Source of the DNA: an uncultured Planctomycetales bacterium
Lineage (GTDB): Bacteria; Omnitrophota; Gorgyraeia; Gygaellales; Profunditerraquicolaceae
Direction: 5' to 3'
DNA length: 52,390 bases
NCBI GenBank assembly: GCA_964354585.1
Contig: CAYHAI010000012.1
Coordinates: 1 to 52,390 of the forward strand
Each line of letters opens with the position of its first letter. The first letter of the stretch is position 1. A program made the position numbers and the translations under genes. A model generated the notes under the pieces. That model was not told the origin of the DNA, made no database searches, and was given only the letters and a program-made list of their open reading frames with translations. This document shows, piece by piece, positions 23,737 to 42,308 of the stretch.

Positions 23737-23765
23737 ATTTTAGCATATTCTTGTGATGTTATCAA
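23737..23765 (-). promoter_or_regulatory. Putative sigma70 promoter for wzc and downstream glycan genes
   Basis: Minus strand TTGATA-17 nt-TAAAAT, with TG in the extended -10 position. Confidence 0.55.
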
Positions 23766-25510
23766 TAACAAAATAAATCTAACCCTATCTTCTCTACTCT
23801 TAACTGATGGTTAAGATAATTCTGGTATTGAATATTATTCCTTAAGAGCTCTTCATGTGTGCCCATATCAATCTTATCAGGACTATTTAGGAAAAATACT
23901 AAATCTGTTCTTTTTATGGCGGAAAAACGATGCGATACAATTATAATAGTAGTATCTCTCAGTGAAACCATCATATTATCTATTATCCTTGCCTCTATCT
24001 GGGCATCTACCGAGGAAAGCGCCTCATCTAAGATTAGAATCTTAGGTCTTTTAATCACTGCCCGGGCAATGGCAATGCGTTGCTTCTGGCCCTCGGAGAT
24101 TTTACAGGCATTCTCTCCAATAATTGTATCGCAGCCCAAAGGCAAGTTATTGATAAAATCATCAATACAGGCAATCCTAGCTGCCTCTACTATTTCTTTA
24201 AAACTCGCATCTGGATTCCCATATCTGATATTATTTGACACTGTATCATTCCATAAATATGGCTCCTGAAGCACTACGCCAATTTGCGCGTATAAGGATT
24301 TTGATTTAATAAGATTTATATTGCCTCCATCAATGATTATCTGGCCACTCAGAGGTTTATAAAGTCTTAAGATTAAATTAAGTATCGTTGTCTTTCCACA
24401 ACCCGAAGGGCCAACCAAGGCAATAAAAGAACCACCCTCGATATAAAAATTTAGGTTCTGCAAAACCATCTTATCCTGTCGGTAACCAAAGGTCACATTT
24501 CTAAATTCTATCTGGCCTTTTAAAAAGGTAATTTCTTTGGTATATTTATCTTCTATAGAGTCAAGCTTGGTTTCTAATATGGAATCTAACCTCTCGCAAG
24601 AAACAAGATCCAAAGATACTTGCTGGAAGAAATATGCCAGCGAACTTTGTAACCCTGATAGCTGATTTAAATAAAGGGTTATTGCGCTAAGGCTTCCTAA
24701 AGTCATTTTGCCCTTGATTATCTGATAACCGCCATAAAAAACAATTAGGCCTAAAATTATCCGCTGGGCTAAACTGTTGGCAAATCCGGATATCACTCCT
24801 AATCTTGTATTTATTAATCCAAATCTAATATTTTCTATCAATCCTTTTATATATCGTCTGGTCTCATATTTTTCTTTTCCCAATGCCTTTACTAAATGAA
24901 TATGTGATAATACTTCCTGTAGGCTCTTAAAAATCTCCCGTGAATTTTCTATCAATCTCCTCATTATTTTCTTTGCTCTGCGGGTAAAATAATAAGGGGT
25001 AAGATATAAAAAAGGTATAAGCGCTAAAGCCAACAAGGCAATCTTGTAATCTAAATAGAACACAATCGCCAAAATAAGTAATGACCTAGGTATGAGTGGG
25101 ATAGCCTGTGGCAACACATCAGTAATAAATGAAGTAAGCCGGTCTATGTCATAATTAATCGTATAGAGGTGCTCGCCAGTAGAGCTATCTTGAAAAAATC
25201 CATAAGGAAGACGCTGTAATTTATTAAAAACCTTACAATTTAAATCAAGATTTATCCGCAACCTGATATAATTTGTTAAATAATTACTTAATCCGCCAAT
25301 AAGACCATTTAAAATAAATATGCTTCCTCCAATAGAAACTATGATTATAAATAATCTTAAGTCTCTATTCCCGTAGGCTTTATCAATAATAAGTTTAGTC
25401 AAATAAGGGTTAACCAAGCCTAAGGCCATAGTAATGCCGCTTAAAAACAATACAAGAACTTCTCTCTTCCAAAAAGGAAGTAGATATCTATAAAACTTAA
25501 GGTATTTCAT
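23762..25510 (-). CDS. ABC exporter, fused permease + ATPase (peptide/MsbA-like), no C39 peptidase domain
   Basis: N-terminal 6-TM domain, GPSGCGKTT, ISEGQKQRIAIARA, LILDEA, SHR. Confidence 0.92.
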   Translation of the reverse strand: MKYLKFYRYLLPFWKREVLVLFLSGITMALGLVNPYLTKLIIDKAYGNRDLRLFIIIVSIGGSIFILNGLIGGLSNYLTNYIRLRINLDLNCKVFNKLQRLPYGFFQDSSTGEHLYTINYDIDRLTSFITDVLPQAIPLIPRSLLILAIVFYLDYKIALLALALIPFLYLTPYYFTRRAKKIMRRLIENSREIFKSLQEVLSHIHLVKALGKEKYETRRYIKGLIENIRFGLINTRLGVISGFANSLAQRIILGLIVFYGGYQIIKGKMTLGSLSAITLYLNQLSGLQSSLAYFFQQVSLDLVSCERLDSILETKLDSIEDKYTKEITFLKGQIEFRNVTFGYRQDKMVLQNLNFYIEGGSFIALVGPSGCGKTTILNLILRLYKPLSGQIIIDGGNINLIKSKSLYAQIGVVLQEPYLWNDTVSNNIRYGNPDASFKEIVEAARIACIDDFINNLPLGCDTIIGENACKISEGQKQRIAIARAVIKRPKILILDEALSSVDAQIEARIIDNMMVSLRDTTIIIVSHRFSAIKRTDLVFFLNSPDKIDMGTHEELLRNNIQYQNYLNHQLRVEKIGLDLFCY

Positions 25511-25540: not shown

Positions 25541-26665
25541 TTACCCCAGATGCGCTAATGCACAAAACCATCTGACTCTTCCCTCTAAATCTCCTGTCTC
25601 CAATAGTGCTTTTCCCGGACAATTAAAACAGGTGTTTCTGATGGAACAGCTCTGACATTTAGAATTATTAGCAAAATATCGTGTTCTTACCCAGTCTAAA
25701 ACTTTTTTCTGGGCTTCTCCCACATCTTCCTTAAGCAGATTTATCTTAGGCTTCCTAATGCAGTCACAAGGGAATGTATTTCCATAAGGGTCAATATAAA
25801 CTCCGTCTCCGCCTCCGATAGCACAGCGGAATAATTCGTGGTTCCTGCCTGCCGGCAGGCATGGCGTGGGGCGTGGTTGGTGGTTCGTCAATAAATCACG
25901 ATCATCAATTAACGATTTCTTATTTCCATTTAAACCCAAAACTTCCTGTGGTGAAATTCTTAAATTAGCAGGAGCCAAATCTCGGTTTAATCGACTATGC
26001 AGGAAAATACCCGGTCTAAATTTTAAGCCTGAACTTTCCACAAATTTTCTTATCCGGGGTAGCTCTCTAAAGTTATCTCTCGTAACCTGGGTCTTAATCT
26101 TTAAGGGCAGCTTGGCTTTTAAAATTAGATTTATTCCTCTCATTACTTTATAAAATGAACCTTTGACTTGAGATATCTTCTCATATAAATCTTGCGTAAC
26201 TGCATTTAGGGTAATCTCAATAACAAAGGGAGGCCTGCCTCTTAAATACTCAGCTATCCTTCTATTCATAGAATAGCCATTAGTAAATATAGTGATAATA
26301 AAACCTTTATTCTTTGCATACCCATATAATTCTAAAAAATCTTCTCGGGTCAAAGGGTCTCCTCCGGTAAAACATAACCATAACATACCTCGGTTATAAA
26401 CCTTATCTAAAATGAGTTTTGCCTCTTGGGTATTCAATTCTCTCCGAATGAATCTCGCTCTATTATAGTAATCACTATAACAGTGTTTGCAATGAAGTTC
26501 ACAACCAAAGGTCAGTTCGAACTGGCAAACATTAGGTCTTCTATTTTGCCAATTCTTTTTGTGAAATTTTAAACTAAAATGTTTATAAGGAATTATTCTC
26601 ATTGGCCTACTGACATCTACATTGCCGACTAAGAATGAATTTGTATTACTAAGATACCTCCGCAA
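25541..26665 (-). CDS. Radical SAM/SPASM protein 3 (likely start 26602, MRIIPY)
   Basis: CELHCKHC, FTGGDPL, FTNG; SPASM FRCAIG...IDPYGNTFPC...CQSCSIRNTCFNCPG...FC. Confidence 0.92.
   Translation of the reverse strand: MRRYLSNTNSFLVGNVDVSRPMRIIPYKHFSLKFHKKNWQNRRPNVCQFELTFGCELHCKHCYSDYYNRARFIRRELNTQEAKLILDKVYNRGMLWLCFTGGDPLTREDFLELYGYAKNKGFIITIFTNGYSMNRRIAEYLRGRPPFVIEITLNAVTQDLYEKISQVKGSFYKVMRGINLILKAKLPLKIKTQVTRDNFRELPRIRKFVESSGLKFRPGIFLHSRLNRDLAPANLRISPQEVLGLNGNKKSLIDDRDLLTNHQPRPTPCLPAGRNHELFRCAIGGGDGVYIDPYGNTFPCDCIRKPKINLLKEDVGEAQKKVLDWVRTRYFANNSKCQSCSIRNTCFNCPGKALLETGDLEGRVRWFCALAHLG
25837..25885. repeat. Heptamer array (CGTGGTT-like) interrupted by a 16-bp perfect palindrome TGCCTGCCGGCAGGCA, inside the radical SAM gene
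   Basis: Units at 25837-43, 25865-71, 25872-78 and 25879-85; palindrome at 25846-25861; encodes HQPRPTPCLPAGRNHE. Confidence 0.75.
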
Positions 26666-28298
26666 GATAATTCTTTAGCATCCACACCAGATGATAAATA
26701 ATCTCTTCACTACTTATTTGTTTAAACAACTTACTCATATACTCATTTATTTCCTCAATACTCGAGTTCTGTTTTTCTCTTAAATAAAAAAGTATTAAGA
26801 AAACTATTTGGGGCACGATAAGATTTAATGGAGGCACTGCTGATAAAAATCTCCTTGTTTTCAATAATTGAATCCCTTCTTCTGTTACGGTTATATGGGT
26901 TTGCTTATTTAATATACGCGAAGGATAATGCTTAAAACATTCAAAATATCGGGGATAAAAAACCGGTTTTGCTTTAGGAGATGCCTTATATTTTTCTGCT
27001 TTATCTATTAATTTGTCACAAAGCATTTCATATTTAGGGATAACCAATGACCAGTCATAATTTTCAAGAACCCGCTTTCTGGCATTATATCCCAATCTTA
27101 AACGCAAGTCCTTGCGTTTAATGAGGAGCGAAAGATACTCAATCATTTTCTTTATATCTATACAAACTGATTGCCCCAAAGATAAATGCTCTACCTGAAT
27201 ATCATTAGTGAATAAATAAGTAGAATTTGATATCTCCCGGTCACACTTAGCCCAATATGTAGGGATACAAAAGCCTGTTTCATTATGTATAACTATCTCT
27301 CTATAGCCATCCCAATCGGAAACAACCACAGCTAAACCTGAAGCCATAGCCTCAATGACGGTTAAACCGAATGACTCCTGCAGGCTATCGCTCGGTGAAA
27401 CAAAGATATCGCTTGCAGCGTATAATAAATATTTTTCTGCCTGGGAAAGATTTAAGAAAAATTTGATATTATGCAAAATACCTAAATCATTTGCCATCTT
27501 CTTTAGTCTTACGGCATAATTACCTTGAAAATTTTTACCTGCAAGCACAAGTAAAATATTTTTGTTTTTAGTTAACAGGTTCTTAAAAGCAAAAAGCACT
27601 GGGTAGAGGTCTGCTTTATCAGAAATCGAGAAACGACCGACATAAAGAATAATGATTTTTTTGTCAGGTAATCGCAGCTTTTTACGAGACCCATCCTTAT
27701 TATTTTTCATATAATCTTCGCTATTTATCCCCAAGGGCAGACAGTCTAACCTTGCTTTATAATTGAGGTTTATAGACATTTTTTTAAATATATTTTGCTC
27801 TATCAATCTATGTATTTTCTTTACAGACTCCAAATTTGACTTACTAACGCATATAATAGAATCAAAAGGATGTAAGTCAGAAATCATATTATAAAAAAAA
27901 TAGTGACCAAGTAATTCAGCATAACTTACAGTATGGCTCACGCCACAGATAGGAAAATACCTTTTTGCATAAATACTGCGCAAATTAGCTATATTAAATA
28001 TTGCCGGAGTACTAAAGGTTAAAAAGATTAAATTTTTTGCATTCTTTAAAAATAAAGGAAGTTGAATAATCTTTTCAATTTTTACCCTTTCATTATTTAT
28101 ATAAGGAATTACCTCTTTGTGCAAAGGATACTTTTTACTATTTTCTGGAAGGATAAAAAAATGATACTCATCAAATTTTCCAAATCGGATTAAGTTTTTA
28201 TAAAAATCGCTTGTTGCCACCCATGCCCCATATAAACCTGCTTTGCTTGAGGATTCCCTAAGATTCCCCATGAATTCATTTGTTACAAATATTCTCAT
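26649..28298 (-). CDS. GT4 glycosyltransferase with C-terminal helical (winged-helix/RRE-like) extension
   Basis: LYVGRF...K, DIFVSPSDSLQESFGLTVIEAMASGLAVVVSDWDGYREIV; extra ~110 aa after the GT-B fold. Confidence 0.85.
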   Translation of the reverse strand: MRIFVTNEFMGNLRESSSKAGLYGAWVATSDFYKNLIRFGKFDEYHFFILPENSKKYPLHKEVIPYINNERVKIEKIIQLPLFLKNAKNLIFLTFSTPAIFNIANLRSIYAKRYFPICGVSHTVSYAELLGHYFFYNMISDLHPFDSIICVSKSNLESVKKIHRLIEQNIFKKMSINLNYKARLDCLPLGINSEDYMKNNKDGSRKKLRLPDKKIIILYVGRFSISDKADLYPVLFAFKNLLTKNKNILLVLAGKNFQGNYAVRLKKMANDLGILHNIKFFLNLSQAEKYLLYAASDIFVSPSDSLQESFGLTVIEAMASGLAVVVSDWDGYREIVIHNETGFCIPTYWAKCDREISNSTYLFTNDIQVEHLSLGQSVCIDIKKMIEYLSLLIKRKDLRLRLGYNARKRVLENYDWSLVIPKYEMLCDKLIDKAEKYKASPKAKPVFYPRYFECFKHYPSRILNKQTHITVTEEGIQLLKTRRFLSAVPPLNLIVPQIVFLILFYLREKQNSSIEEINEYMSKLFKQISSEEIIYHLVWMLKNYLAEVS

Positions 28299-28304
28299 TT
28301 ATCT

Positions 28305-29873
28305 TTATTTATATTCATCTGACACCAGATAACCCAAATCCACTAATTCCTGAACTATGGCAATCTGCTCTTTGTCTTGAGGAATAATTAAATATTCATC
28401 TGGTTTTAAGTAACGGGCGCACTTCACTAAAGAATTCCATAATTTTTTGGGATAGCGCCTAATCCTTGGCCCAGGATATCCAAATTCCATGAGTGCCTTT
28501 TCTTTATCCCAAAAGGCAATGCGGAAAAACCCGCGCCAAATACTATTTTTTTCTACTTTGGGCGGCGCGTTCATAGCTGAATATATTCCCTGGGCAACGG
28601 CAAAGGCATAATGTAAAGGTCCATCACCATAGACATAAGCTCCGGGAGGCAATTCTTTTCTTGTATCCACAAAATAATTAAAAACCCTGTTATCAACCAC
28701 ATTAAATAACTGTCTTTTTATATCTCGCTCAGTTTTTTCTAAATCCAGGGGTATCTCGGGAGGCCTCTTTATCAGATATCTTACGGCTTTCTTTAAATTA
28801 TCTTTTAAAATTTTGGGGTTACATTCTTTGAGCACAAAATTACGGTATTGTTGGTTGGATAGCCAATTTCGTTCAAGGATTGCCCTTTGTAAAAGAATTC
28901 TAAATTGCCTTAAGCTAAAGCGACAGCCAAAAAGCGTAGGATAGGTATCCACCCCTTTCCAGGGCATATTATCTGCTAAGAGCCTTAGGCCACAAAAATT
29001 AGTGGTCACCACCGGCAGTCCGCAGGACATTGCCTGGCGTGGAGTAACCCCAAAATCCTCATCTGGCTGGATAGATAGATTGACAAACAAATCTGCTGAC
29101 CAAAATAAATCCCTTAACTCCTGCTTATTCTTAGCCTCCTGAAAACGCAGCCAGGGCCTGGGCCTATTGCGCAATATTTCCGCATTAAAAAAGTGGGAAA
29201 ATGTCTTATGCTGGGCAAAAGAAAAAGCCAACCCAAACTCTTCTTCAATATTACCTGCTAAGGTAAACACAATATTATCTGAAATAGGCCAGATATCCAA
29301 GGCGCGGATTAACTGACAAATTCCCTTAGTCACAATCCATCTACCGGCATAAACAATATGTAACTGCCCTTTTCTTATCCCTTGTTTCTTACGTGCCAGC
29401 AAACGCTGATGGTTATTAGGTAGAGTAAAATAATTAGTATCTACTTTGTTACTAAAAACCGCTATCTCCGGCGCAAGACTACCCAAGTAAGACCTTATCC
29501 GATTCATTTGAAATTGGGTTGAAACAAGGTCAACCTGAGCAGAGGGCAGATATTTAAAGTTATAAAGATGCTCTGGCAACAATAACGAACCTAAAGAAAG
29601 CCAAAGTAACCGATGGGGCACTTTGGATAGGAGATTTCTTTCTGATAAAAAGTGTACTGATACAAATATCGCATCTGGTTTTCCCAGAAGCATCTTAAGT
29701 CTTTTCTCTTCTAATTTTTCATTCAGTGGAATAATTTTGCCAAGCTGGCTAAGACAGCTAAAAAACCATTTTTTATACGCGATGACCGCAGTCCCTTCGT
29801 CAACCTTGAACGGGCCTTTTTTGTTCTTCTTAAAAACACTCAAGTAGTCTTTTTCTAAGATATAAAATTTCAT
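28305..29873 (-). CDS. GT4 glycosyltransferase with C-terminal extension (RRE-like tail)
   Basis: VYAGRW...KG, DLFVNLSIQPDEDFGVTPRQAMSCGLPVV; tail ends ...QELVDLGYLV. Confidence 0.8.
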   Translation of the reverse strand: MKFYILEKDYLSVFKKNKKGPFKVDEGTAVIAYKKWFFSCLSQLGKIIPLNEKLEEKRLKMLLGKPDAIFVSVHFLSERNLLSKVPHRLLWLSLGSLLLPEHLYNFKYLPSAQVDLVSTQFQMNRIRSYLGSLAPEIAVFSNKVDTNYFTLPNNHQRLLARKKQGIRKGQLHIVYAGRWIVTKGICQLIRALDIWPISDNIVFTLAGNIEEEFGLAFSFAQHKTFSHFFNAEILRNRPRPWLRFQEAKNKQELRDLFWSADLFVNLSIQPDEDFGVTPRQAMSCGLPVVTTNFCGLRLLADNMPWKGVDTYPTLFGCRFSLRQFRILLQRAILERNWLSNQQYRNFVLKECNPKILKDNLKKAVRYLIKRPPEIPLDLEKTERDIKRQLFNVVDNRVFNYFVDTRKELPPGAYVYGDGPLHYAFAVAQGIYSAMNAPPKVEKNSIWRGFFRIAFWDKEKALMEFGYPGPRIRRYPKKLWNSLVKCARYLKPDEYLIIPQDKEQIAIVQELVDLGYLVSDEYK

Positions 29874-29901: not shown

Positions 29902-30822
29902 TTATATTTTTCTTACAAATTCAATAACCTTTTTATTATTTACAAATCCCAACTTAAAACAAGTAACATTCTTTACCAAATCCTCGCAAAAACAAACTAC
30001 ATTTTCTAAACACGCCTTATCCCAGAAAGTAGGAAAAAGCGCAGGATAAAGCATGCTAAATGCCTCTTTCTCACAAATACGCCGCAGTCTATTTTGGCAG
30101 GCATGATAAATAAAGAATAACTTATCCAGACGCGCTGATTCAATGCGTGACAGAAGATAATCGCTGAATTCTCCGTGCCAGGGTGAGCCATAGATAAGAA
30201 ATTTACCTTTTAATCTGCGCACAATTATGCGGTCATCATTAAGGACCATTGCCCGGCTATGCTTGTGCCAAAGCCTGGCGGTAGTACTTTTACCCATACC
30301 AGATTTACCGGCAAAAAGTAAACCCCTGCCATCTAAATCCCTTACGCCAATACTATGCACAAAGATTCCTTTTTTCCTCAAGGCAAAATAATTTATTAAA
30401 AGAACCTGTAAAAAGTCATAAATAATATCTGCAATATTCCAGACCCGGCCTTTGTTCTTCTTAGGTAATAGATAAGCGGTTACTGTGTCAAATGTCTGAT
30501 TTACCAACATAACCTGTTGTTTATTTTCTAAAGGGCAGCGGTAAATATAAGCATTATCTTTTTTTTGCAGTCTCCAGCTCTCCTGGTGTCCATCGGGGTG
30601 AAAGGTGGTAAAGATATCTCTGGCTTTACCAATATCCGGCGATTTATCCACTATGTCAATCTTAATGGCAATATCCGGCTTAGCTTTTCCTTTATATAAA
30701 AAGCTATTAAACCTTTCGGGAATCTGCAGTCTTTGTCCTTTTTTGCTAAGTTGTTCATAACTAAAATTACTCTGTAGCTGAATGATTGTGTCAGCGATTT
30801 TTAGCTTAACCTCTGTTTTCAT
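29902..30822 (-). CDS. HPr-kinase-like P-loop protein (ScmC/HPr-rel-A type; putative peptide kinase)
   Basis: VHSIGV...GLLFAGKSGMGKSTTA...VLNDDRIIVR...YGSPWHGE. Start moved to MKTEVK (30822) to remove the overlap with the upstream gene. Confidence 0.8.
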   Translation of the reverse strand: MKTEVKLKIADTIIQLQSNFSYEQLSKKGQRLQIPERFNSFLYKGKAKPDIAIKIDIVDKSPDIGKARDIFTTFHPDGHQESWRLQKKDNAYIYRCPLENKQQVMLVNQTFDTVTAYLLPKKNKGRVWNIADIIYDFLQVLLINYFALRKKGIFVHSIGVRDLDGRGLLFAGKSGMGKSTTARLWHKHSRAMVLNDDRIIVRRLKGKFLIYGSPWHGEFSDYLLSRIESARLDKLFFIYHACQNRLRRICEKEAFSMLYPALFPTFWDKACLENVVCFCEDLVKNVTCFKLGFVNNKKVIEFVRKI

Positions 30823-30835
30823 ATTCTTTTCTTCT

Positions 30836-31930
30836 CTATTCTGCCCGGTATTGGCTTTCTGGATCGCAGGCAGTGAAGGTTCTATTATAAAGCAAGGCCT
30901 GCCCCGGCCACCATTTGCAATCATTGCAGAATTGGCATTTATCGCATTGATAATTCTTATCTGGCTTTATAGAGGCAACTAACTCTTTTAATCTCTCCCA
31001 CGCATATTTCAAACCATCTTTCGGATGTACGATGTGCGATGTGCGATGTACGATGTACTTATTCAATATTTTATATTTAGGATAATCTATCATCAAACAC
31101 ATCTTCAACTCGCCATATGGAGTTATCGCTGCTTGACTTACTCCTACCCCGCATTTAAATAGAGTATTGTGTATTGTGTATTGTGTATTGTGTTCTGATT
31201 TTTGAAAATTCAAACCGCAGGCTTCAAATTTGTCTTTACTGGTGACCTGGCGACCTGGTGACCTGGTGACTATTTGTTTCCTAAATCCTCTATGCCGATA
31301 CGGTTCTCTATCGCCATCTAAACGCGGTGAAAGCCTATCATCTAAACGATGCAAAGCGCCTAAAGAAGCTGCAAAATCCTGAATTTCTTTTATCTCCTTC
31401 TCATTTTCCTTTAAAAGGCAACTCTTAAATCCCAGCCTGACTCCATTTTTATGCAAAAGCCGGATGGCCTTAAATACATTATCGCAAGAGCCCTTAACTC
31501 CCGTAATCTGCTCAAAAGCCCTTTTACTTATAGCCGGGATAGTAATATCTACCTTATTTGGGTTGAGCTGCTTCAATTCCTCGGCTTTGGCTTTATCTAT
31601 GAGCGAACCATTGGTATAAATAATAATCTGGAAACCTTTCTTCTTGGCATACCAGAGAATCTTGAATATATCCTCTCTTAAAAATGGCTCGCCGCCGGTA
31701 AATCCCAAATAAAAACAGCCTAAATCTTTAAGTTGGTCTAAAATAGAAAATACCTCTTTTGTGGTAAGTTCTACCCTGGCTTTCTTTTGATAACTGGCTG
31801 GAACATAACAGTGTCTACATCTAAAATGACATCTATAGGTTAATTCAAATATTACCCGCAAAGGGAAACTATCTTTCCTTGCTGTTTTATGTATCTGTTG
31901 CCAAAAATCGTGGTAGGATCTAACTTCCAT
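30836..31930 (-). CDS. Radical SAM/SPASM protein 2
   Basis: ELTYRCHFRCRHCY, FTGGEP, YTNG; SPASM FKCGVG...ITPYGELKMC...CDKCQFCNDCKWWPG...C. Confidence 0.92.
   Translation of the reverse strand: MEVRSYHDFWQQIHKTARKDSFPLRVIFELTYRCHFRCRHCYVPASYQKKARVELTTKEVFSILDQLKDLGCFYLGFTGGEPFLREDIFKILWYAKKKGFQIIIYTNGSLIDKAKAEELKQLNPNKVDITIPAISKRAFEQITGVKGSCDNVFKAIRLLHKNGVRLGFKSCLLKENEKEIKEIQDFAASLGALHRLDDRLSPRLDGDREPYRHRGFRKQIVTRSPGRQVTSKDKFEACGLNFQKSEHNTQYTIHNTLFKCGVGVSQAAITPYGELKMCLMIDYPKYKILNKYIVHRTSHIVHPKDGLKYAWERLKELVASIKPDKNYQCDKCQFCNDCKWWPGQALLYNRTFTACDPESQYRAE
31024..31058. repeat. Heptamer tandem repeat GATGT(A/G)C x5 inside radical SAM 2
   Basis: gatgtac gatgtgc gatgtgc gatgtac gatgtac; encodes YIVHRTSHIVH. 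Confidence 0.9.
31162..31194. repeat. Heptamer tandem repeat G(A/T)GTATT x4.5 inside radical SAM 2
   Basis: gagtatt gtgtatt gtgtatt gtgtatt gtgtt; encodes HNTQYTIHNTL. Confidence 0.9.
31239..31270. repeat. Octamer tandem repeat CTGG(T/C)GAC x4 inside radical SAM 2
   Basis: ctggtgac ctggcgac ctggtgac ctggtgac; encodes VTRSPGRQVTS. Confidence 0.9.
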
Positions 31931-32993
31931 TAATCTGTTCTGCAGTTGCTTTAGCTAATTCGCAATAATAAGGAACCGGCGCCTCTTCATCACCGGTTTC
32001 TAAATACGCCCTTGCTGGACAATGATAGCAAATCGGTCTTAACCGGCAATCCTTACATTTAGAGTTAGTTTTAAATTTTTCATTTAAAAGTTTAGGAAAT
32101 ATATTATAGAAACCTTCTCTAAAGGCAGTGTCTTTTAGATTAACGCTAAACTTATCTGAGAAGCCACAGAACTTAAGATAACCGTAAGGGTTAATGTCAA
32201 AATGCTGCATCCATGAATTACACTGATAAAGAAACTGCCTATCTCTTCTTAACTTAGGCAAAGTGCAATCTAAACTCTCTTGATATTCCTTCCAGATATC
32301 CGGGTCTTGCTTTTTTACCTCTAATAACTCCGCAGGCGAAAGCCTATAATTACAAGGTATTTTATCACGGTTGTATCTAGGGTATATCATAGGGTCATAT
32401 TGAAAACGGTATCTATTTCGGGGTAAATTATCAAAGGCTTTTTCTGTAAAAGCCTTTATCCGGCCAATCTGGGACTTATTTTGCTTAAGGCAGTTAGCTT
32501 TTAATATCAAGGGCGATTTTTTTTCTTTCAACTGGCTGATTGTATCCATAACCTTAGCAAAAGAACCGGGAACCCGAGTAATTGCTTCATAGGTTTTTTG
32601 GGTTATGCCATTTAAGGTAATTTCTATAGAATAAGGCGGAGATTTTAGAAAATAATTAATCATCTGGGCTGTAAGTGCCTGGCCATTGGTAAGCAGGGTG
32701 ATAAAAAATCCTTTTTTCTTGGCATAAGAATAAATCTCCAGGAAATCCTTTCTTATTAAGGGGTCTCCTCCGGTAAGGCACAGGCACAAGCAACCCTCTC
32801 TTTGTATCATATCGAGGATCCGCTTCCATTCTGCAGTGGTTAGTTCCCGGCGTGTTGATTCTAAGCCTTTACAATAGCAATGGACGCAATTTAATTTACA
32901 TCTATAAGTGAGTTCAATCTGGCCATTTAAAGGAAAGTGTGCTTTTTTATTAAAGAGGTCATAGAAAAAATACCCGGCCTGCTTTTTGTTCAT
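31920..32993 (-). CDS. Radical SAM/SPASM protein 1
   Basis: ELTYRCKLNCVHCY, LTGGDPL, LTNG; SPASM YQCNSW...INPYGYLKFC...CKDCRLRPICYHCPA...YYC. Confidence 0.93.
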   Translation of the reverse strand: MNKKQAGYFFYDLFNKKAHFPLNGQIELTYRCKLNCVHCYCKGLESTRRELTTAEWKRILDMIQREGCLCLCLTGGDPLIRKDFLEIYSYAKKKGFFITLLTNGQALTAQMINYFLKSPPYSIEITLNGITQKTYEAITRVPGSFAKVMDTISQLKEKKSPLILKANCLKQNKSQIGRIKAFTEKAFDNLPRNRYRFQYDPMIYPRYNRDKIPCNYRLSPAELLEVKKQDPDIWKEYQESLDCTLPKLRRDRQFLYQCNSWMQHFDINPYGYLKFCGFSDKFSVNLKDTAFREGFYNIFPKLLNEKFKTNSKCKDCRLRPICYHCPARAYLETGDEEAPVPYYCELAKATAEQINGS

Positions 32994-33134
32994 TGCTACA
33001 TTCTCCTAAACGCACGTCTTGAAAATATCTTTTTTCTCAACTTAGCTATGCCAAACCTAATCCCTCTTATATCCTCTTGTTGCCAAATTTTGAATTTGCT
33101 CTTATTAACAAACTACCAAATCGCCAAAAAGGGC

Positions 33135-33377
33135 TTAGGAAGCGGCAACGGTAGTGTTCTGTTTATATGTAGAGGCAGTCCCACTCGCAGCATCGCAGGT
33201 TACATGCGTCTCACCCACCTTCGGACTCGTAATCCCGCAAGGCCTATATTGAGACGCTCCCTTGTTAGCTGCTACTGTTGTCCAGCTCTGACCAGTATAG
33301 CAGGCGCACTGCAATACCGCCTGTTCAGGGTTGAGTTTTACCCGCGTGATTACCGGCTCAAACTTCTTCTTATACAT
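33135..33377 (-). CDS. Putative RiPP precursor peptide (80 aa)
   Basis: Strong SD (GAGGTGA) before ATG; basic leader-like N-terminus KKKFEPVITRVKLNPEQAVL; core with Cys24/26/47/61 and 16 Ser/Thr; directly upstream of radical SAM/SPASM genes. Confidence 0.8.
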   Translation of the reverse strand: MYKKKFEPVITRVKLNPEQAVLQCACYTGQSWTTVAANKGASQYRPCGITSPKVGETHVTCDAASGTASTYKQNTTVAAS

Positions 33378-33415
33378 ACATTCACCTCGCTTTCTAATAA
33401 CTCTATTTCTATCTA

Positions 33416-34201
33416 TTAATATTTGTCAAATAAGTCCTTGATAATTGTCTTGGCGTTCACTACGAGATTGGCTTCATCTTCATTAAAAAGAAAAGGCCTT
33501 AATCCCTTCGCAAGCCTTTCCAATTCCGAAAGACTAAATTCATTAATCGTCTCGAGCATAACTTCTCTAGGCTCTTGCTTAATACCATTGGCTTCTAACA
33601 CATCTTTATTGATCGGGAATTTTTTAGAAAGCATAATAATAATATCATAGATATGTCTTCCCTTCTTAATATGCCTTAAGGCGTCTATCTTTTCCGCAAA
33701 GACTGAGCCTTTAGACATTACCCTAACTGGAAAAATCTCGCCAAAACTTGAAACGTTAGTTGTCTCTGTCTCCAGTTCAAATATAGGTCTGTTGGCTTCC
33801 AACTTTACCATAAGATTTCCTCTTTTATCCATTATCTTGTAATATTCTAAGACATTTTTGAATACAAATACGCTTGATGAAAGTCTTCCTCTATGCTGGA
33901 AAGCAACCTCAGGATGAATATTCTCTCTTTTTAATTCTTCTTTGACAAATTCTGCAGCCTTTTGGAATTCTACCTTATTGACTTCGGTAATGTTGAAATC
34001 TAAATCTTCGGAAAACCTCTTAAAACCATATACTAATCTTAACGAGGTTCCACCTAAAAAATAAAATTTATCATGCCATTTACTTACGTAAAGATATTTG
34101 AGCATAAGGGTCTGAATATATTCTCTCATTATGCCGCGCATCTTATTGATGGGCAGATTATTAATCTTGGCCTGCTCTATTAGTGCTTCATAACCGAGCA
34201 T
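33416..34201 (-). CDS. AbiEii/AbiGii-family nucleotidyltransferase (type IV TA toxin)
   Basis: FLGGTSLRLVYGFKRFSEDLDF, AEKIDAL...RHIYDI. Confidence 0.9.
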   Translation of the reverse strand: MLGYEALIEQAKINNLPINKMRGIMREYIQTLMLKYLYVSKWHDKFYFLGGTSLRLVYGFKRFSEDLDFNITEVNKVEFQKAAEFVKEELKRENIHPEVAFQHRGRLSSSVFVFKNVLEYYKIMDKRGNLMVKLEANRPIFELETETTNVSSFGEIFPVRVMSKGSVFAEKIDALRHIKKGRHIYDIIIMLSKKFPINKDVLEANGIKQEPREVMLETINEFSLSELERLAKGLRPFLFNEDEANLVVNAKTIIKDLFDKY

Positions 34202-34808
34202 AAATATCCTTTATTGTATTATAAGTTAATTTATTAAGATAAGAAGCGTAATTATAGAGTTTTGCCTTTTTAAATTTTTTAAGCACGGATAAATCAAGGC
34301 GCTCTTCTTCTACATTAATTTTATGACCATCATATAGTTTGAAATAAACATAATCTGCAAACGCCTTTTCTGGTTCAGCAATTTTAATCTTAAATTTATT
34401 CTCTTCTATAATTCTATAGCCAATGAAGGCATTTGTCTTTATGCTTCTGTATCTAAAAAAACCATGGTAATTCTTAAATTCCCGCGTGGGTTTTGTGGTA
34501 ATAGAAGTAACGCCAAAGGCGACTTCCGGAATTATATTGTAGATAGAAAGCGCGGTCTCTAATGATACATAAGATGGGCTATATAACTTATTTGCCAAGA
34601 ATAAATCAGGGATATTTTTGCTTTCTGGATAGATTATCTCATAAAGTCCATTTTTTAGAACTCTAATCCAATTACGTTTCTTCCAATAGTGAATTTGCTG
34701 TCTTAAAATCTCTTTTTTTTCTTCTGGAAAAAGACAGTATAAATCCTGAGTTGAAAATAGATATAATCGGTTTTCCTCTAACTTCTTATACAGATCAATA
34801 TATTTCAT
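34188..34808 (-). CDS. AbiEi-family antitoxin / transcriptional regulator (type IV TA)
   Basis: N-terminal wHTH (LKNGLY), LYSPSYVSLETALSIYNIIPE, TSITT, IAEPEKAFADY; overlaps the toxin start. Confidence 0.9.
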   Translation of the reverse strand: MKYIDLYKKLEENRLYLFSTQDLYCLFPEEKKEILRQQIHYWKKRNWIRVLKNGLYEIIYPESKNIPDLFLANKLYSPSYVSLETALSIYNIIPEVAFGVTSITTKPTREFKNYHGFFRYRSIKTNAFIGYRIIEENKFKIKIAEPEKAFADYVYFKLYDGHKINVEEERLDLSVLKKFKKAKLYNYASYLNKLTYNTIKDIYARL

Positions 34809-35068: not shown

Positions 35069-35353
35069 TTAACCCTTAACCGCCTTTATCTCTTTTAAGT
35101 CTTTTAAGAATTTTGTTAATTCTTTATCCAGTTTTTTTTCTGTAGTGTCAAACTCTTGCAAAAGTGTCTTTTTAATCTTTTCCAGACTTCTCTTGCCGTC
35201 AATAAGTTCCCAAATCCTTGCTGCTACCTTATTCAGGGTATAAATACAGTTTATCTCATCAGATGTCTTATAAATGGGCATAAGGATTGTTTCGTCTTCG
35301 ATGGTGCGACTAACTATATTAGGGTTCTTTTTCAATACGACTGATTCCTTCAT
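35069..35353 (-). CDS. PqqD-family standalone RiPP recognition element (RRE)
   Basis: 94 aa; IVSRTIEDETILMP...IYTLNKVAARIWELIDGKRSL...FLKDLKEIKAV; strong SD GGAGGAGG. Confidence 0.92.
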   Translation of the reverse strand: MKESVVLKKNPNIVSRTIEDETILMPIYKTSDEINCIYTLNKVAARIWELIDGKRSLEKIKKTLLQEFDTTEKKLDKELTKFLKDLKEIKAVKG

Positions 35354-39139: not shown

Positions 39140-40564
39140 TTACTTGGCAAAATACTCTGCTATTCTTCTAATTATTGTATTTAAATTGCTAATTCTTTTT
39201 ATATCCTTGAGTATCCCGTAGATTATTTTAGGACGCACATAAAATCTAAGATTAAGATAAACCTTAAGCAGGCGCAATTCAAAGAGTGGAATATCGCCCA
39301 ACCTAACAAAAACTTTATCTGACATAATATTTTCAAAATCGAAACTTTCAAGTTTAAGCTTCCCCTCTTTTACAAGTTCGTCAAAAATCTCTGTTCCTGG
39401 AAGCGGCACAAAGATGCCAAAATCCGCCCTGTGAAACGGCATTGTAAGGGCAAACTTTAATGTTTCATAAATCTCGTTTTTAGTCTCCGTAGGCAGCCCA
39501 AATAATAAAAAGGCCAGCATGCGAATTCTGGTTGCGCGTGCTACCATATCTATCTTCTCTTTCATATCCTCAGGGGCCATATTCCGCTTTAGCCTCCTAA
39601 GAAGCCGATGAGAACTTGTCTCAACCCCTACGGCAAAGTAATAAAAACCGGCGGATTCCATCGTTTTTACCAACTCTTCATCAAGCGTATCGAGTCTTAA
39701 CCCCATTGGGCAGGCGAAGGATAATTCGTATTTTAACTTATTTAGTTCGGCGCAGAACCGCATCACATAGTCTTTGTTGAAAGTAAAGTTGTCGTCTTCG
39801 ATATGTATCTCTTTTACGCCAAACCGCTCCGCTAATAACCTTATCTCTTTAATGACAACTTCAATTGAACGCCATCTGATCTTCCTGCCAGTTACTAAAT
39901 GCCCTCCGCAATATGTGCACTGGCAGGGGCATCCCCGCGTAACAATTATGGGCGCTATGGGTAAATTTTTAAAAAATGCTCCCTGGGGCCTTGGCGGATA
40001 TTTACGAGGGTCTATCAAATCCCACGCAGGAGCGCCGAAAATATCTAAATTGTCCTCTGAGGTAAGCGGATTTATAATTATCTTTGTTTGCTTATCCCGT
40101 CTGACTAAGTTTGGAATTTTATCGAATCCGTTTTTGCCGATAGAGATTTGATTCAAAAATAAAGCAAGCGGCATCTCTCCCTCGCCTACAATAATATAGT
40201 CAAGCCCTGGTATATCATTCATCGTTAATTCCGGGACTGCGCTGGGATGCGGCCCGCCTGCAATTAGCTTTAGCCCTGGCTTTACCTGCTTAAGAGCTGC
40301 TGATATTTTTTTTACGCTGACATAGTCTCGGCTATACATAGTAATGCCGACAGCATCTGGGTCAAGCCTTAATATTTCTTCTATAGTTTTTTTCAAGGGG
40401 AGATTGTCTTTAAAGGCATCTAAGATAAAGACATCCCAATTTGTATTTTCTCTTACAGAAGCGGCTAAATACCCAAGTCCTATTGGCGGAATCAATATGC
40501 CTTTCACGGGATGATTCGGCTTGACAAGGACTATTCTTCTATTCGAATCCAATTTTCTTTCCAT
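39140..40564 (-). CDS. Cobalamin-binding radical SAM protein (class B methyltransferase-like)
   Basis: PPIGLGYLAA, GGPHPS, GEGE (B12 domain), TRGCPCQCTYC, EDDNF, GVET, GLPTET, PLPGT. Start set at MERKLD (40564); the ORF track extends to 40651. Confidence 0.9.
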   Translation of the reverse strand: MERKLDSNRRIVLVKPNHPVKGILIPPIGLGYLAASVRENTNWDVFILDAFKDNLPLKKTIEEILRLDPDAVGITMYSRDYVSVKKISAALKQVKPGLKLIAGGPHPSAVPELTMNDIPGLDYIIVGEGEMPLALFLNQISIGKNGFDKIPNLVRRDKQTKIIINPLTSEDNLDIFGAPAWDLIDPRKYPPRPQGAFFKNLPIAPIIVTRGCPCQCTYCGGHLVTGRKIRWRSIEVVIKEIRLLAERFGVKEIHIEDDNFTFNKDYVMRFCAELNKLKYELSFACPMGLRLDTLDEELVKTMESAGFYYFAVGVETSSHRLLRRLKRNMAPEDMKEKIDMVARATRIRMLAFLLFGLPTETKNEIYETLKFALTMPFHRADFGIFVPLPGTEIFDELVKEGKLKLESFDFENIMSDKVFVRLGDIPLFELRLLKVYLNLRFYVRPKIIYGILKDIKRISNLNTIIRRIAEYFAK

Positions 40565-40604
40565 AAGATAATATAAAAAATCGCCTGTTTTATAAAACCT
40601 GTTA

Positions 40605-42308
40605 CTATAAACCTCGCTGGCTATATCCGGTGTTTTTTGGTTTATATACAAGAAAATTTCCTTCAGCCGATTTAAAAACTCTATCGAATCTGTTCTGATT
40701 AAATTTTGATTCTATCGCCTTTGTTCTAACAACAATATATATATCTTTGTTTAGGCTAAAAAAGTCCTCTGTTTCTTTGTCTAAAGACTTTTGAGTTATA
40801 TCATAGATACCTTTGACTATCCTTCTCCTTTTCTCAATTAGATTATAATCGTATCCGCACATTAGCAAAATATCTTTTATAGGCGCGCTATAGCCAAGAT
40901 TTTTCTCCCAATCCCTCTCTTCTCCCATTCCTATAAAAAGCTGTCTCTTGGCAAAGACTGGGATAGTAAGCTCTGAGTCAACAAATATACTATCCAAAGA
41001 CGTATTATTCGTAATCCATTGATATAATTTGTCCTCTTCCTTATCCCTGTGATAGACATTTTTTCCTTTTTCAACACAGGTATTGACAACATCTTTTAAT
41101 CTCGCTATTTTCATTCGCATATCAAAATAGGTAGAGCTAAGAAAAAGAAACAATAGGATAAACATCGCAAAGTTATTGCACCGCTTGCTCATCGCACTAA
41201 AAGCCACTCCCCCTATTATGCCTAAACCTAACGTGGAAAACATAAAGAATTTATACTCGTTCTCCCAGCTCAAACAAATGAGAATATAAAGAAACAGGTT
41301 TGTCACAATAACAGCCAAAATGATAAGCAGGGCTTCTCTGTCTATATTCTTCTTTAAATAGCCTTTATTTATATAGATCACCGCTAAAATTGGAAAGCTC
41401 ACAATAAAATATTTAACAATTTTGATAACAACGGCTCTGATATTTGGAAATTGTATATTTTTTGCCATACCTTGACTTATAGATGACAGATAGGGCCATA
41501 AGATTAAGATAGCGATTGACAAAAGCACGGCTACGAAGACCGTCTTTCTAAAATTAACGATAAAGTTATTCTTTTTGCTAACGATAGCTAGGACTAGAAA
41601 GATTGGGATTATGCTTGTAACCACGCCTAATAATATACCCGGATAAAAAAACCCACCCCCCAAAACAGAGACAAAAAAAACTAACATATAAAAAATGTTT
41701 TTTCTTGTTTCGAATATTTTTATAACGGAATACAAAAATAAAAGAAAGAATACAAACCCTAAAACATCGCCGTTAATATTGGAGAATTTATTAAATATCG
41801 GCGTGCCTTTTATCATTATCCTTGAAGCATAACCAGGAAATATCTCTTCTAACAAATAATGATTCACAATCGACATCCCAAAAACCGAAATAGCCGCAGA
41901 GAAAATATTAGCCTTTTCGTCTCTGATTAATAAACTCGATATCTTATAAGCTAGTATCAGCGTAACTAAAAGTGAAATAGCGCTTATAAAGGAAAAAGAA
42001 TAAAAAGGCGTTATGTTAAAAATCTTAGTAATCCATGCTGCCAGATAATGATATCCCCAATAAAAAACCAGCGGCTGACCGCCTAACAATGGATTGGTGG
42101 GCGGGATTTTTCCATCTAATATCTGATAGACTATTCCAGCATGCCAAAAGCCATGGAATGAATAGATTCGGTTGTTTGGGCTTATAATATAAAACGCTAT
42201 CAGCGCAGATAAACCTAAAAGAATATAGTAGATTTTGCTTATTCCCTTTTTAGATAAAATCGGAAATGAAAAAAATAGATATAATATCAGCCACAACGCG
42301 AAACACAT
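40605..42308 (-). CDS. Polytopic membrane protein, probable GT-C-type glycosyltransferase
   Basis: About 13 hydrophobic segments; early loop H...IPPTNP..GG....YWGYH; C-terminal soluble domain (LYQWITNNT). Confidence 0.6.
   Translation of the reverse strand: MCFALWLILYLFFSFPILSKKGISKIYYILLGLSALIAFYIISPNNRIYSFHGFWHAGIVYQILDGKIPPTNPLLGGQPLVFYWGYHYLAAWITKIFNITPFYSFSFISAISLLVTLILAYKISSLLIRDEKANIFSAAISVFGMSIVNHYLLEEIFPGYASRIMIKGTPIFNKFSNINGDVLGFVFFLLFLYSVIKIFETRKNIFYMLVFFVSVLGGGFFYPGILLGVVTSIIPIFLVLAIVSKKNNFIVNFRKTVFVAVLLSIAILILWPYLSSISQGMAKNIQFPNIRAVVIKIVKYFIVSFPILAVIYINKGYLKKNIDREALLIILAVIVTNLFLYILICLSWENEYKFFMFSTLGLGIIGGVAFSAMSKRCNNFAMFILLFLFLSSTYFDMRMKIARLKDVVNTCVEKGKNVYHRDKEEDKLYQWITNNTSLDSIFVDSELTIPVFAKRQLFIGMGEERDWEKNLGYSAPIKDILLMCGYDYNLIEKRRRIVKGIYDITQKSLDKETEDFFSLNKDIYIVVRTKAIESKFNQNRFDRVFKSAEGNFLVYKPKNTGYSQRGL

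Follow-up and report, generated by a model that had tools for sequence, protein, structure and literature searches.

Background

SynChlorMet cassettes, of which to our knowledge only the enzymes have been catalogued and no precursor has been identified, are the first term of comparison for the locus described here. A PqqD-type chaperone and a PqqE- or MftC-like radical SAM (rSAM)/SPASM enzyme also take part in the synthesis of PQQ and mycofactocin, while prochlorosin-type lanthipeptides exemplify multi-precursor RiPP families, in which one leader is found with many cores. From Omnitrophota we know of almost no characterised natural products. In lasso precursors the C-terminal Ser is phosphorylated by HprK homologues, for which the remainder of the peptide matters little, and lasso clusters often contain an uncharacterised nucleotidyltransferase fused to the leader protease B2 (PMC8498205). 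PsmN, described in its source only as 'a family of uncharacterized nucleotidyltransferases', is needed for the addition of hexoses to that Ser phosphate (PMC6993621).

The window, i.e. the whole stretch of 52,390 nucleotides analysed, contains a short gene, probably coding for the precursor of a RiPP, served by a cassette resembling SynChlorMet; this degree of confidence applies to the general reading and not to its single steps. The relevant features are reported in Table 1.

Table 1. Features of the window discussed in the text
Feature	Position	Strand	Evidence or remark
ABC exporter, transmembrane and ATPase domains, no peptidase domain; presumed product exporter	23762..25510	-	Pfam, NCBIfam
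Radical SAM/SPASM enzyme C	25541..26665	-	Pfam/NCBIfam matches, orthologues in loci
GT4 glycosyltransferase b, in cassette	26649..28298	-	Pfam; 39%-identical orthologue in L027
GT4 glycosyltransferase a, in cassette	28305..29873	-	Pfam; 35%-identical orthologue right after ABC gene in L004
HPr-kinase/PEPCK-fold P-loop protein, labelled Pfam ScmC, presumed peptide kinase	29902..30780	-	motifs, fold, PF27840 label
Radical SAM/SPASM-like enzyme B	30836..31930	-	Pfam/NCBIfam matches, orthologues in loci
Radical SAM/SPASM enzyme A	31920..32993	-	Pfam Radical_SAM; orthologues in 24/40 loci
Precursor peptide gene, 80 aa + stop	33135..33377	-	translation, 427 homologous cluster representatives, family conservation
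Variable core of precursor with C47, C61, terminal S80	33138-33311	-	
Conserved block of precursor, residues 1-27	leader 1-22 (33312-33377), then x-C-x-C-aromatic	-	
Shine-Dalgarno-like GAGGTG	33383..33388	-	5 nt upstream of ATG (33375-33377), read from sequence
Promoter-like site TTGACA, 18 nt, TAGAGT; 10/12	33400..33429	-	just upstream of precursor, over abiEii end
AbiEi (34188-34808) and AbiEii (33416-34201) toxin-antitoxin pair	33416..34808	-	Pfam, NCBIfam
PqqD-family peptide chaperone (RRE), presumed leader binder	35069..35353	-	Pfam PF05402, E 6.7e-14
B12-binding radical SAM enzyme, possible accessory tailoring enzyme	39140..40651	-	Pfam; B12-rSAM near cassette in L004, L010, L015, L020

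Results

The probable precursor gene

A preliminary description, made from the letters of the window, had proposed this minus-strand ORF as a precursor gene. Its translation coincides with the 80 residues quoted there, and the Shine-Dalgarno sequence, the leader and the composition also agree: residues 1-22 are basic and include F6-x-P8, Q-C-A-C comes next, and the 58-aa remainder contains 4 Cys, 10 Thr and 6 Ser. The call of a promoter for the gene rests on position only, since promoter-like sites in the region number 11, versus 10.4 in shuffles. A 160-aa ORF on the opposite strand overlaps the gene. The RNA 3' of the precursor folds no better than shuffles (z +0.83) and a scan found no minus-strand terminator after the gene; an attenuator or terminator at this place was thus discarded.

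That the ORF is short, matches nothing in Pfam or NCBIfam and is overlapped on the other strand could point to a chance open frame, or to an element acting as DNA or RNA. This explanation has a negligible probability in our judgement, as it is contradicted by hundreds of homologues sharing frame, ends and similar length, by the correct spacing of the Shine-Dalgarno sequence, by the shuffle-level structure of the 3' RNA, and by amino acids that stay invariant while third codon positions vary. For the leader motif, 39 different DNA versions, a set chosen by the amino-acid motif, were compared: third positions vary (1.24 bits) and second positions have 0 bits. Judged from these comparisons, the 80-aa ORF is a real gene under protein-level constraint.

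When modelled alone by AF2, the precursor gave no confident fold (pLDDT 59.5, pTM 0.27), so that the pairing of its Cys residues is not readable from the model; the absence of a confident predicted fold fits a peptide substrate.

The internal repeats of the core, noted in the preliminary description as TTVAA (residues 33-37 and 75-79) and as the near repeat ASQY (41-44)/ASTY (68-71), are present in the window copy and are not a feature of the family. When the window core was shuffled 20000 times with its composition preserved, exact repeats of at least 5 residues arose 74 times, which places the TTVAA repeat beyond chance for this single sequence; an internal exact repeat of at least 4 residues was found in only 1 of 155 homologues, and TTVAA was therefore discarded as a family trait. 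Since neither repeat is a family feature, the idea that the repeated Thr/Ser motifs are modification sites finds no support at the family level.

A family with a conserved leader and variable cores

The window precursor is matched, at E<=1e-3, by 427 cluster representatives, so that the family amounts to 427 or more clusters at 50% identity. The architecture was evaluated on 156 proteins, all of which carry the relaxed motif. All of them show a near-invariant leader block, F-x-P-x-ITRVKLNPEQAVL-x-C-x-C-aromatic: by motif numbering, P stands at -3 without exception (156/156) and F at -5 with a single one (155/156), Cys occupies +2 in 156/156 and +4 in 154/156, and Y, F, W or H is at +5 in 152/156. 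The conserved block extends through C-x-C-aromatic, beyond the leader residues 1-22 originally delimited, so that conservation does not mark where the leader ends and the core begins. The expected combination of a conserved leader with a variable core was thus encountered in large numbers. Cores vary and Cys spacing is kept in the 156 proteins (median spacings 22 and 13, with 19 residues from the final Cys to the C-terminus), 3 or 4 Cys being present in 126 of 140 strict-motif proteins. Mean column identity across the entire family alignment is 26%; what is kept family-wide is the leader block, C24, C26, the aromatic residue or His at 27, C47, usually the fourth Cys, and the C-terminal Ser.

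Within the phylum 301 genomes were sampled and 26 of them have the precursor, which is thus an accessory trait. In some loci the precursors number 2-5, and orphan precursor loci are also encountered, their genomes holding the enzymes elsewhere. In one paralogue pair (L017) flanks and leader are 87-97% identical, and the core between them falls below the identity threshold of the repeat finder. A reverse-transcriptase fragment of 133 aa follows the second precursor of this locus (L018 is the same sequence). A diversity-generating retroelement was discarded, as the fragment is found in one locus only and the repeats of L017 come from duplication of flanks and leaders, with no template/variable pair among them.

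No model for the precursor was found in Pfam or NCBIfam, nor was any paper found in the literature describing the precursor, its leader motif, or a cassette combining a kinase-like protein, PqqD and rSAM enzymes, or treating SynChlorMet or ScmC together with rSAM enzymes. General surveys of biosynthetic gene clusters that touch on Omnitrophota RiPPs hold nothing specific in their text, and clusters of this type may figure in their supplementary tables with generic names. The family is very probably a large, undescribed one, centred on Candidatus Omnitrophota. Its fixed scaffold and variable loops suggest that the product is under diversifying pressure; antagonism, recognition or a place at the cell surface are conceivable roles for such a molecule.

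Gene order in the cassette

Forty precursor loci were compared, mostly from Omnitrophota MAGs and many of them cut by contig ends. The recurring order is PqqD, precursor, rSAM_A, rSAM_B, HPr-kinase-like protein (Pfam ScmC), rSAM_C and ABC exporter; it was found in L002, L004 and L009, and also, with no match to the downstream ABC gene, in L003, L014 and L023. The preliminary description would have been refuted by a lack of leader-conserving homologues near rSAM and PqqD genes, and it withstood this comparison: PqqD is found in 26 of the 40 loci, each rSAM type in 24, the kinase-like gene in 19 and the ABC gene, following the cassette, in 14. PqqD is lacking in 14 loci and rSAM genes in 16, many of these being short contigs; five loci (L016, L026, L029, L030, L032) have long flanks devoid of the enzymes. 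The cassette of L001 is fragmentary and lies at a contig end.

In the window the AbiEi/AbiEii pair separates PqqD from the precursor. No counterpart of the pair was found in the 40 related loci, and by this comparison it is an insertion, outside the cassette. A sigma-70-type promoter, perfect at 12/12 positions, is located near it (34843-34871). The window cassette also holds two GT4 genes among its core genes.

PqqD and probable leader recognition

PqqD genes are mostly found directly upstream of the precursor. In L019, L022, L025 and L021, the last cut at the contig start, a single open frame joins PqqD and precursor, and in L022 this frame has no ATG before the leader; P0279, a protein of 214 aa, is an independent PqqD-precursor protein. 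Such natural fusions speak indirectly for binding of the leader by PqqD.

Co-folding of the leader with PqqD, proposed in the preliminary description, gave a score of 0.50, the best of 3 controls reaching 0.01, with at least 83% contact agreement among runs and a partner pLDDT of at least 54. In the calibration, 58 of the 80 solved complexes passed the mark, as did 2 of the 110 mismatched pairs; with a score of 0.60 or less it was passed by only 7 of those 80 complexes and by both of these mismatches. The model stands out from its controls, in a range shared with the mismatches, and supports an interaction weakly. Solved complexes of PqqD-type RREs with leaders exist, so that the score may reflect likeness only. 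The stand-alone PqqD is likely to bind the leader block (F-x-P...ITRVKLNPEQAVL), and would present the peptide to the enzymes.

Radical SAM enzymes

The three rSAM/SPASM enzymes contain CxxxCxxC and conserved C-terminal Cys residues (7 in enzyme A, 6 in B, 7 in C). Among proteins of solved structure, SkfB comes closest to enzyme A in sequence (E 2.4e-12), the similarity being confined to the rSAM core region (residues 18-177). Models of StsB and PapB align almost full-length to enzyme C. None of the NCBIfam curated cut-offs was reached by the three rSAM enzymes, PqqD or the kinase-like protein, and the chemistry is thus not assignable by homology. In particular, the models of the characterised thioether-forming families scored far below their cut-offs, SkfB included (PapB 64.5 versus 340, StsB 81-91 versus 625, AlbA 47-74 versus 850), which gives no membership in any of them. 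The three enzymes may install crosslinks on the framework made of C-x-C-aromatic, the third and the fourth Cys, and these would probably be Cys-based thioethers or C-C links; for Cys-based crosslinks made by the three enzymes we consider the chances about even.

These same enzymes raise the case for the precursor of a peptide-derived redox cofactor, such as PQQ or mycofactocin. The top NCBIfam rSAM matches include PqqE and MftC, the latter at 97.5 bits and nearly full-length on enzyme B, PqqE ranks second, after SkfB, among the solved relatives of enzyme A, and an upstream GT2 domain (36304-38385) has MftF as best match (94.6 bits, cut-off 280). All the scores for MftC, PqqE and MftF are however far under the curated cut-offs. 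Cofactor precursors have conserved cores, whereas the cores found here differ from one another and a genome may hold several unlike copies; in addition, no conserved cofactor-dependent dehydrogenases were seen nearby in the annotated related loci. This reading was discarded as highly improbable.

The kinase-like protein and the terminal Ser

The longest ORF of the kinase-like gene extends to 30924, and the probable start is an internal Met, where its orthologues begin. Walker A and L-N-D-D-R motifs are invariant among the orthologues. The AF2 model (pLDDT 83.8) was matched by Foldseek, with modest TM-scores, to PEPCK (E 3.4e-7) and to HprK/P (1knx, 1.6e-5; 1kkl, TM 0.52 on target). The score against Pfam Hpr_kinase_C is 20.2 bits, for a cut-off of 33.3, and sequence and profile searches of solved structures yielded matches at the P-loop level only. 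The precomputed PF27840 label, named ScmC, is borne by the window protein and by 118 of the 120 homologues listed.

The final residue of the precursor, likened in the preliminary description to the Ser targeted by kinases of paeninodin-type clusters, is Ser in 148 of the 156 proteins, Thr in 7 and Ala in 1, while Ser accounts for 12% elsewhere in the cores; among precursor ORFs read from the loci, 38/41 end in Ser and 3/41 in Thr. Among the interpretations of the preliminary description this one fares best, in view of this conservation and of the HPr-kinase/PEPCK-fold protein that is a core member of the cassette. By analogy with the HprK homologues acting on lasso precursors, the ScmC/HPr-kinase-like P-loop protein would phosphorylate Ser80, a step to which we assign roughly equal odds for and against.

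Accessory genes and glycan surroundings

A nucleotidyltransferase of the NTP_transf_5 family (PF14907) was found in 7 of 10 related loci. In 4 of those loci S24-like peptidase domains are present, fused to the nucleotidyltransferase in L008, L009 and L015 and stand-alone in L003. In the source genome, an orthologous protein of 564 aa, 38% identical over the full length to the L009 fusion, is encoded on another contig (C23), outside the window. A search of the literature on PF14907 retrieved only unrelated phosphonate work. The S24-like domain fused to the nucleotidyltransferase might remove the leader and the ABC transporter might export the product, a pair of steps which is plausible, at somewhat less than even chance. 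More doubtful is an extension of the phosphorylated Ser site with sugar, whether by the GT4 enzymes of the cassette or by the PF14907 nucleotidyltransferase of contig C23.

The same surroundings might indicate that the peptide is a small carrier or acceptor of the polysaccharide machinery, with a permanent N-terminal tag, a phospho-Ser glycan site and Wza/Wzc export. The window is in fact one long glycan locus (GT2, GT4, PMT_2, Wzy_C, Wzc, sugar-nucleotide enzymes). To the two GT4 genes of the cassette correspond a GT9 gene at the same place in L014 and the GT4a orthologue after the ABC gene in L004. Poly_export and/or Wzc-like genes come after the cassette in L002, L009 and L010, and the nucleotidyltransferase gene of the source genome adjoins a Wza gene. 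Of the 10 annotated loci, at least 9 have glycan-related genes at a distance of 10 kb or less, a figure with no control for the density of glycan genes in these small genomes. However, canonical cassettes (L002, L009, L023) have no glycosyltransferase among their core genes, the S24-like peptidase domains suggest cleavage, such divergence of the cores is unexpected of a generic carrier, and a PqqD with three rSAM/SPASM enzymes and an ABC exporter of their own make up the classic RiPP toolkit. A carrier function is for these reasons considered unlikely.

Discussion

In the preferred reading, that of a RiPP precursor with a SynChlorMet-like cassette, we infer for this family both the crosslink chemistry and the phosphorylation of the final Ser. 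A more ambitious formulation, rather improbable as a whole, would see here a RiPP class that is new and belongs to the ultra-small Omnitrophota: a peptide of ~55 aa with a Cys frame and highly variable loops, crosslinked by three dedicated rSAM/SPASM enzymes, phosphorylated at its C-terminal Ser by a ScmC-type kinase, provided on this handle with a phospho-linked glycan by nucleotidyltransferase and glycosyltransferase enzymes, and joined to, or exported with, Wza/Wzc polysaccharide, while the leader-bearing peptide, sometimes fused to PqqD, would also be the missing substrate of ScmC/SynChlorMet-type cassettes.

The family would add a large set of precursors to the rSAM RiPPs, and would provide a concrete substrate for ScmC-type cassettes. 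The terminal Ser, the kinase-fold protein and the nucleotidyltransferase suggest that phospho(glyco)sylation of a C-terminal Ser may occur also in rSAM peptides; in the literature consulted, none was found described outside lasso peptides. Peptide engineering could profit from the constancy of the Cys scaffold, the variability of the loops and the shortness and strictness of the leader. The question is also raised of the role of diversified peptides in bacteria with small genomes, possibly host-associated.

Comparison with known systems

The cassette resembles SynChlorMet in its parts, namely an HPr-kinase-like protein labelled ScmC, a homologue of PqqD and PqqE-like rSAM/SPASM enzymes that occur paired, and differs from it by having three rSAM enzymes instead of two, an ABC exporter, often an NTP_transf_5/S24 protein, and an identified precursor family. 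The NCBIfam SCM equivalogs (TIGR04248-TIGR04251) scored far below their cut-offs in the window cassette, and fell below them also in the distant loci L014 and L035. For the window, ScmC (TIGR04249) gave 24.2 bits versus 125 and ScmD (TIGR04248) 28.7 versus 100, while ScmE (TIGR04250) and ScmF (TIGR04251), both with a cut-off of 400, gave 77.4/52.9 for enzyme A, 57.1/82.2 for B and 61.9/66.2 for C. One sampled genome (G301) contains true ScmC/ScmD pairs (305 and 251 bits; 110 and 107 bits), which differ in appearance from the cassette of the window; a C-terminal extension of ScmD was seen in this genome. Beside these genes no match to the precursor better than E 0.74 was found, and tblastn searches of its two loci with the window cassette proteins returned weak ABC matches only.

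Paeninodin and pseudomycoidin resemble the present system in having a precursor ending in Ser, a putative kinase of HprK-like fold and a nucleotidyltransferase nearby, of which PadeK/PsmK and PsmN may be the counterparts. The protease domain fused to the nucleotidyltransferase is S24-like in Omnitrophota loci and B2 in lasso clusters. Differently from lasso clusters, the window cassette has no cyclase/B-protein pair, its core of ~55 aa has a Cys framework, and the main maturases are rSAM/SPASM enzymes. Two Asn_synthase homologues are located in the window (16496-18331 and 42644-44374), and neither Asn_synthase nor B-protein families were found among 82 neighbour ORFs in 10 related loci. With no conserved Asn-synthetase-like cyclase or transglutaminase-like B protease beside the precursor, a lasso peptide was discarded.

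Sactipeptides and ranthipeptides (SkfB, AlbA, StsB, PapB, SCIFF-type) are similar in their Cys-bearing precursors and in their rSAM/SPASM maturases with auxiliary-cluster Cys, SkfB being the nearest solved relative of enzyme A; here, in contrast, the conserved set comprises three different maturases, PqqD forms a protein of its own, and a kinase module and a near-invariant terminal Ser are added. With prochlorosins the family shares a conserved leader, differing cores and several precursor genes per genome, some of them distant from the enzymes; the maturation machinery consists here of rSAM/SPASM enzymes and a kinase and there of LanM, and Cys spacing is kept in the present family.

Precursor gene and family

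The minus-strand ORF 33135-33377 is translated into 80 residues identical to the protein quoted in the preliminary description, and a recount gave the core composition claimed there (4 Cys, 10 Thr and 6 Ser). A word-indexed search with the precursor returned 11 relatives of 65-85 aa, and an exhaustive phmmer search 427 cluster representatives at E<=1e-3: the precursor gene is real, and part of a large family.

The leader motif is found in all 156 family proteins examined, where I-T-R-V-K-L-N-P-E-Q-A-V-L is preceded by F in 155 and by P in 156. After the motif, Cys is found at +2 in 156/156 and at +4 in 154/156 proteins, and position +5 is aromatic or His in 152. The remainder is variable, with spacing kept: the median distance is 22 (IQR 19-24) from the second to the third Cys, 13 (12-15) from the third to the fourth and 19 (17-22) from the last Cys to the C-terminus. 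The C-terminal residue is Ser in 148 proteins; another 7 end in Thr and one in Ala. At the remaining core positions the share of Ser is 12%. A comparison of 39 distinct DNA versions of the leader motif found codon position 2 invariant and 1.24 bits at position 3; as the versions were chosen by the amino-acid motif, this pattern reflects protein constraint and is not an unbiased test. NCBIfam matched none of 116 family members and Pfam one, by chance; no description of the family was found in the models or papers searched.

TTVAA is repeated in this copy, and ASQY/ASTY form a near repeat, as noticed earlier. A repeat of at least 5 residues arose in 74 of 20000 shuffles of the core, yet an internal exact repeat of at least 4 residues occurs in only 1 of 155 homologues, so the repeat is real here but is not a family property. 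AF2 predicts no confident fold for the precursor on its own (pLDDT 59.5).

Directly 3' of the precursor stop lies a T-rich motif, approximately CCCTTTT-G-TTTT-GG...ATTTGG, which by eye recurs after about 15 of 52 precursor genes from different genomes (in L001, L010, L011, L017, L023, L026, L028, L029, L031, L033 and L036); RNA folding found no hairpin in it.

Gene order and distribution

The cassette genes are reported in the table; the remainder of the 52-kb window is a glycan locus. Upstream of PqqD are a GT2 gene, a GT2-rSAM/SPASM fusion, another GT2 and a B12-rSAM gene. The fusion has an unusual architecture, and the best NCBIfam match of its GT2 part is MftF, the mycofactocin glycosyltransferase (94.6 bits vs a cut-off of 280).

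Coordinates of features in the window and in other loci (L), cassette genes being listed from upstream to downstream
Feature	Position	Strand	Remark
GT2-rSAM/SPASM fusion	36304-38385	-	693 aa; two genes upstream of PqqD
PqqD	35069-35353	-	
AbiEi/AbiEii promoter	34843-34871	-	sigma-70-type, perfect 12/12
AbiEi	34188-34808	-	type IV toxin-antitoxin pair with AbiEii
AbiEii	33416-34201	-	between PqqD and precursor
Shine-Dalgarno-like GAGGTG	33383-33388	-	5 nt ahead of precursor ATG
Precursor	33135-33377	-	
T-rich post-stop motif	33105-33134	-	
rSAM/SPASM A	31920-32993	-	
rSAM/SPASM-like B	30836-31930	-	
HPr-kinase-like protein	29902-30780	-	
GT4 glycosyltransferases, two	28305-29873; 26649-28298	-	
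rSAM/SPASM C	25541-26665	-	
ABC exporter	23762-25510	-	
Wzc	21853-23703	-	
Wzy_C-domain protein	20507-21844	-	
GIY-YIG ORFs	19455-19787	-	
	L017:4230-4565		
GLF/amine-oxidase-type gene	52052-52390	+	N-terminal part, ends window
	L044:4355-5272	-	C-terminal part, ends contig C23
PqqD-precursor frames	L019:7151-7990; L022:8868-9623; L025:9533-10255; L021:2-367		
True ScmD	L045:12394-13098	-	genome G301
	L046:8889-9596	+	genome G301
UPF0489+TPR proteins	L003:8079-9620; L004:8274-9710; L014:7951-9687; L017:2329-3861; L020:8192-9676		
RVT_1 fragment	L017:12128-12526	+	133 aa
Repeat arrays	L011:2570-3870; 5280-5430; 6070-6150		around three precursor genes

A scan with one genome per species gave 40 loci, many ending at contig ends; by record title, 33 belong to Candidatus Omnitrophota MAGs and 7 to other lineages. 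The expected homologues with conserved leader and variable core do adjoin PqqD and rSAM genes: by tblastn with the window proteins, 26 of the 40 loci have a match to PqqD, 24 to each rSAM enzyme, 19 to the kinase-like protein, 14 to the ABC exporter and none to AbiE. The recurrent order in related loci is PqqD, precursor, A, B, kinase-like, C, ABC; since it lacks the AbiE pair and the GT4s, these are insertions in the window copy. Several loci hold 2-5 precursor genes, and orphan precursors occur elsewhere in genomes with one enzyme locus. Of 301 genomes sampled from the phylum, 26 contain a precursor match, one of them 11; this genome (completeness 89.3%) has a single copy.

Association of PqqD with the precursor

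Three loci of one marine MAG (L019, L022, L025) encode PqqD and precursor in one continuous open frame, with a K/R/E-rich linker between the two; in L022 no ATG precedes the leader. L021 has the same arrangement, cut at the contig start, and a search for longer proteins yielded an independent PqqD-precursor protein of 214 aa (P0279).

Solved structures of RRE-leader complexes exist. Co-folding of PqqD with precursor residues 1-34 scored 0.50, against 0.01 for the best of three controls, with at least 83% of contacts in agreement between runs and partner pLDDT of at least 54. Of 80 solved complexes, 58 attain the pass mark, as do 2 of 110 mismatched pairs, and passes at or below 0.60 comprise only 7 of the 80 solved complexes and both mismatches. 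The model thus leans slightly towards PqqD-leader pairing, a pass being able to mirror likeness to already solved complexes.

Two true ScmD proteins of the SynChlorMet (SCM) cassette, adjoining true ScmC and above NCBIfam cut-offs, were found in another genome, G301. They measure about 235 aa vs 84, and past a variable linker share a conserved island, Y-E-x-P-K/R-L..L..E-R.A.G, followed by divergence. The extension is reminiscent, in sequence, of a fused leader and core, and may be a lead for the SCM substrate; neither gene was found to have an rSAM gene within 10 kb.

rSAM enzymes and kinase-like protein

CxxxCxxC is present in rSAM A, B and C, with 7 conserved C-terminal Cys in A and C and 6 in B. 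Their best NCBIfam matches (AhbD, NirJ, MftC, PqqE, StsB, PapB, GeoRSP) all score far below curated cut-offs, so homology assigns them no chemistry; the best solved relatives are SkfB and PqqE.

In the kinase-like protein the Walker A and L-N-D-D-R motifs are invariant, and the orthologues start at its internal Met. A fold search with its AF2 model (pLDDT 83.8) matched PEP carboxykinases (E 3.4e-7) as well as HPr kinase/phosphatases (1knx, E 1.6e-5; 1kkl, TM 0.52 on target). Homologues number 476 at E<=1e-5, and 118 of the 120 listed carry the precomputed label PF27840, named ScmC in the Atlas. Scores stay below NCBIfam SCM equivalog cut-offs in the window and in the most distant loci.

Accessory genes and contig C23

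At 10 loci, 82 of 155 neighbour ORFs were scanned, the other 73 being core genes or outer edges. A PF14907 nucleotidyltransferase was found in 7 loci, and an S24-like peptidase domain in 4; the domain is part of a nucleotidyltransferase fusion in L008, L009 and L015 and stand-alone in L003. In 5 loci the gene immediately upstream of PqqD encodes a UPF0489+TPR protein of about 500 aa; a search of this genome gave no match, but nor did its control, so a copy may still be present. B12-rSAM genes are close to the cassette in 4 (L004, L010, L015, L020), a truncated radical SAM ORF in L002 also matches the B12-rSAM of the window, and glycan genes are close in at least 9.

Another contig of this genome, C23, encodes a 564-aa orthologue of the L009 S24/NTP_transf_5 fusion (38% identity over the full length), adjoining a Wza gene, and also carries a porin-like gene. 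The window and C23 each end in one part of a GLF/amine-oxidase-type gene, with a gap of about 100 profile positions between the two, so that C23 may continue the window, as one possibility only.

Precursor loci seem to gather small selfish genes: in two genomes, small ORFs with a GIY-YIG nuclease domain are located within, or next to, the cassette or the glycan locus, and 23S rRNA-intervening-sequence-protein ORFs amid cassette genes (L010, L017). An RVT_1 reverse-transcriptase fragment directly follows the second precursor gene of L017, and is found only there (L018 is the same sequence). Dense intergenic arrays of ACGCGAAT-like units of about 10 nt, with spacings of 10 and 21 nt, occur in L011; a single copy lies 3' of a precursor in L017.

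Proposed pathway and comparison with known systems

Around the observed gene, its constraint, architecture and synteny, a pathway may be outlined in which PqqD would guide crosslinking by the three rSAM enzymes within a framework of C-x-C-aromatic, third Cys and fourth Cys. Ser80 would be phosphorylated by the ScmC-like kinase, a step proposed because the final Ser is near-invariant and a lasso precedent exists; sugar might be added, the leader would be removed by the S24-like domain, and the product exported by the ABC transporter. [quoted passage not shown] The part available of a 2025 list of phosphorylated RiPPs includes no rSAM peptide (PMC12639078).

The cassette falls outside the NCBIfam SCM equivalogs, every curated family of sacti- or ranthipeptide maturases, and the lasso peptides; by analogy, it would work like a SynChlorMet-type system combined with a lasso-type Ser tailoring module.
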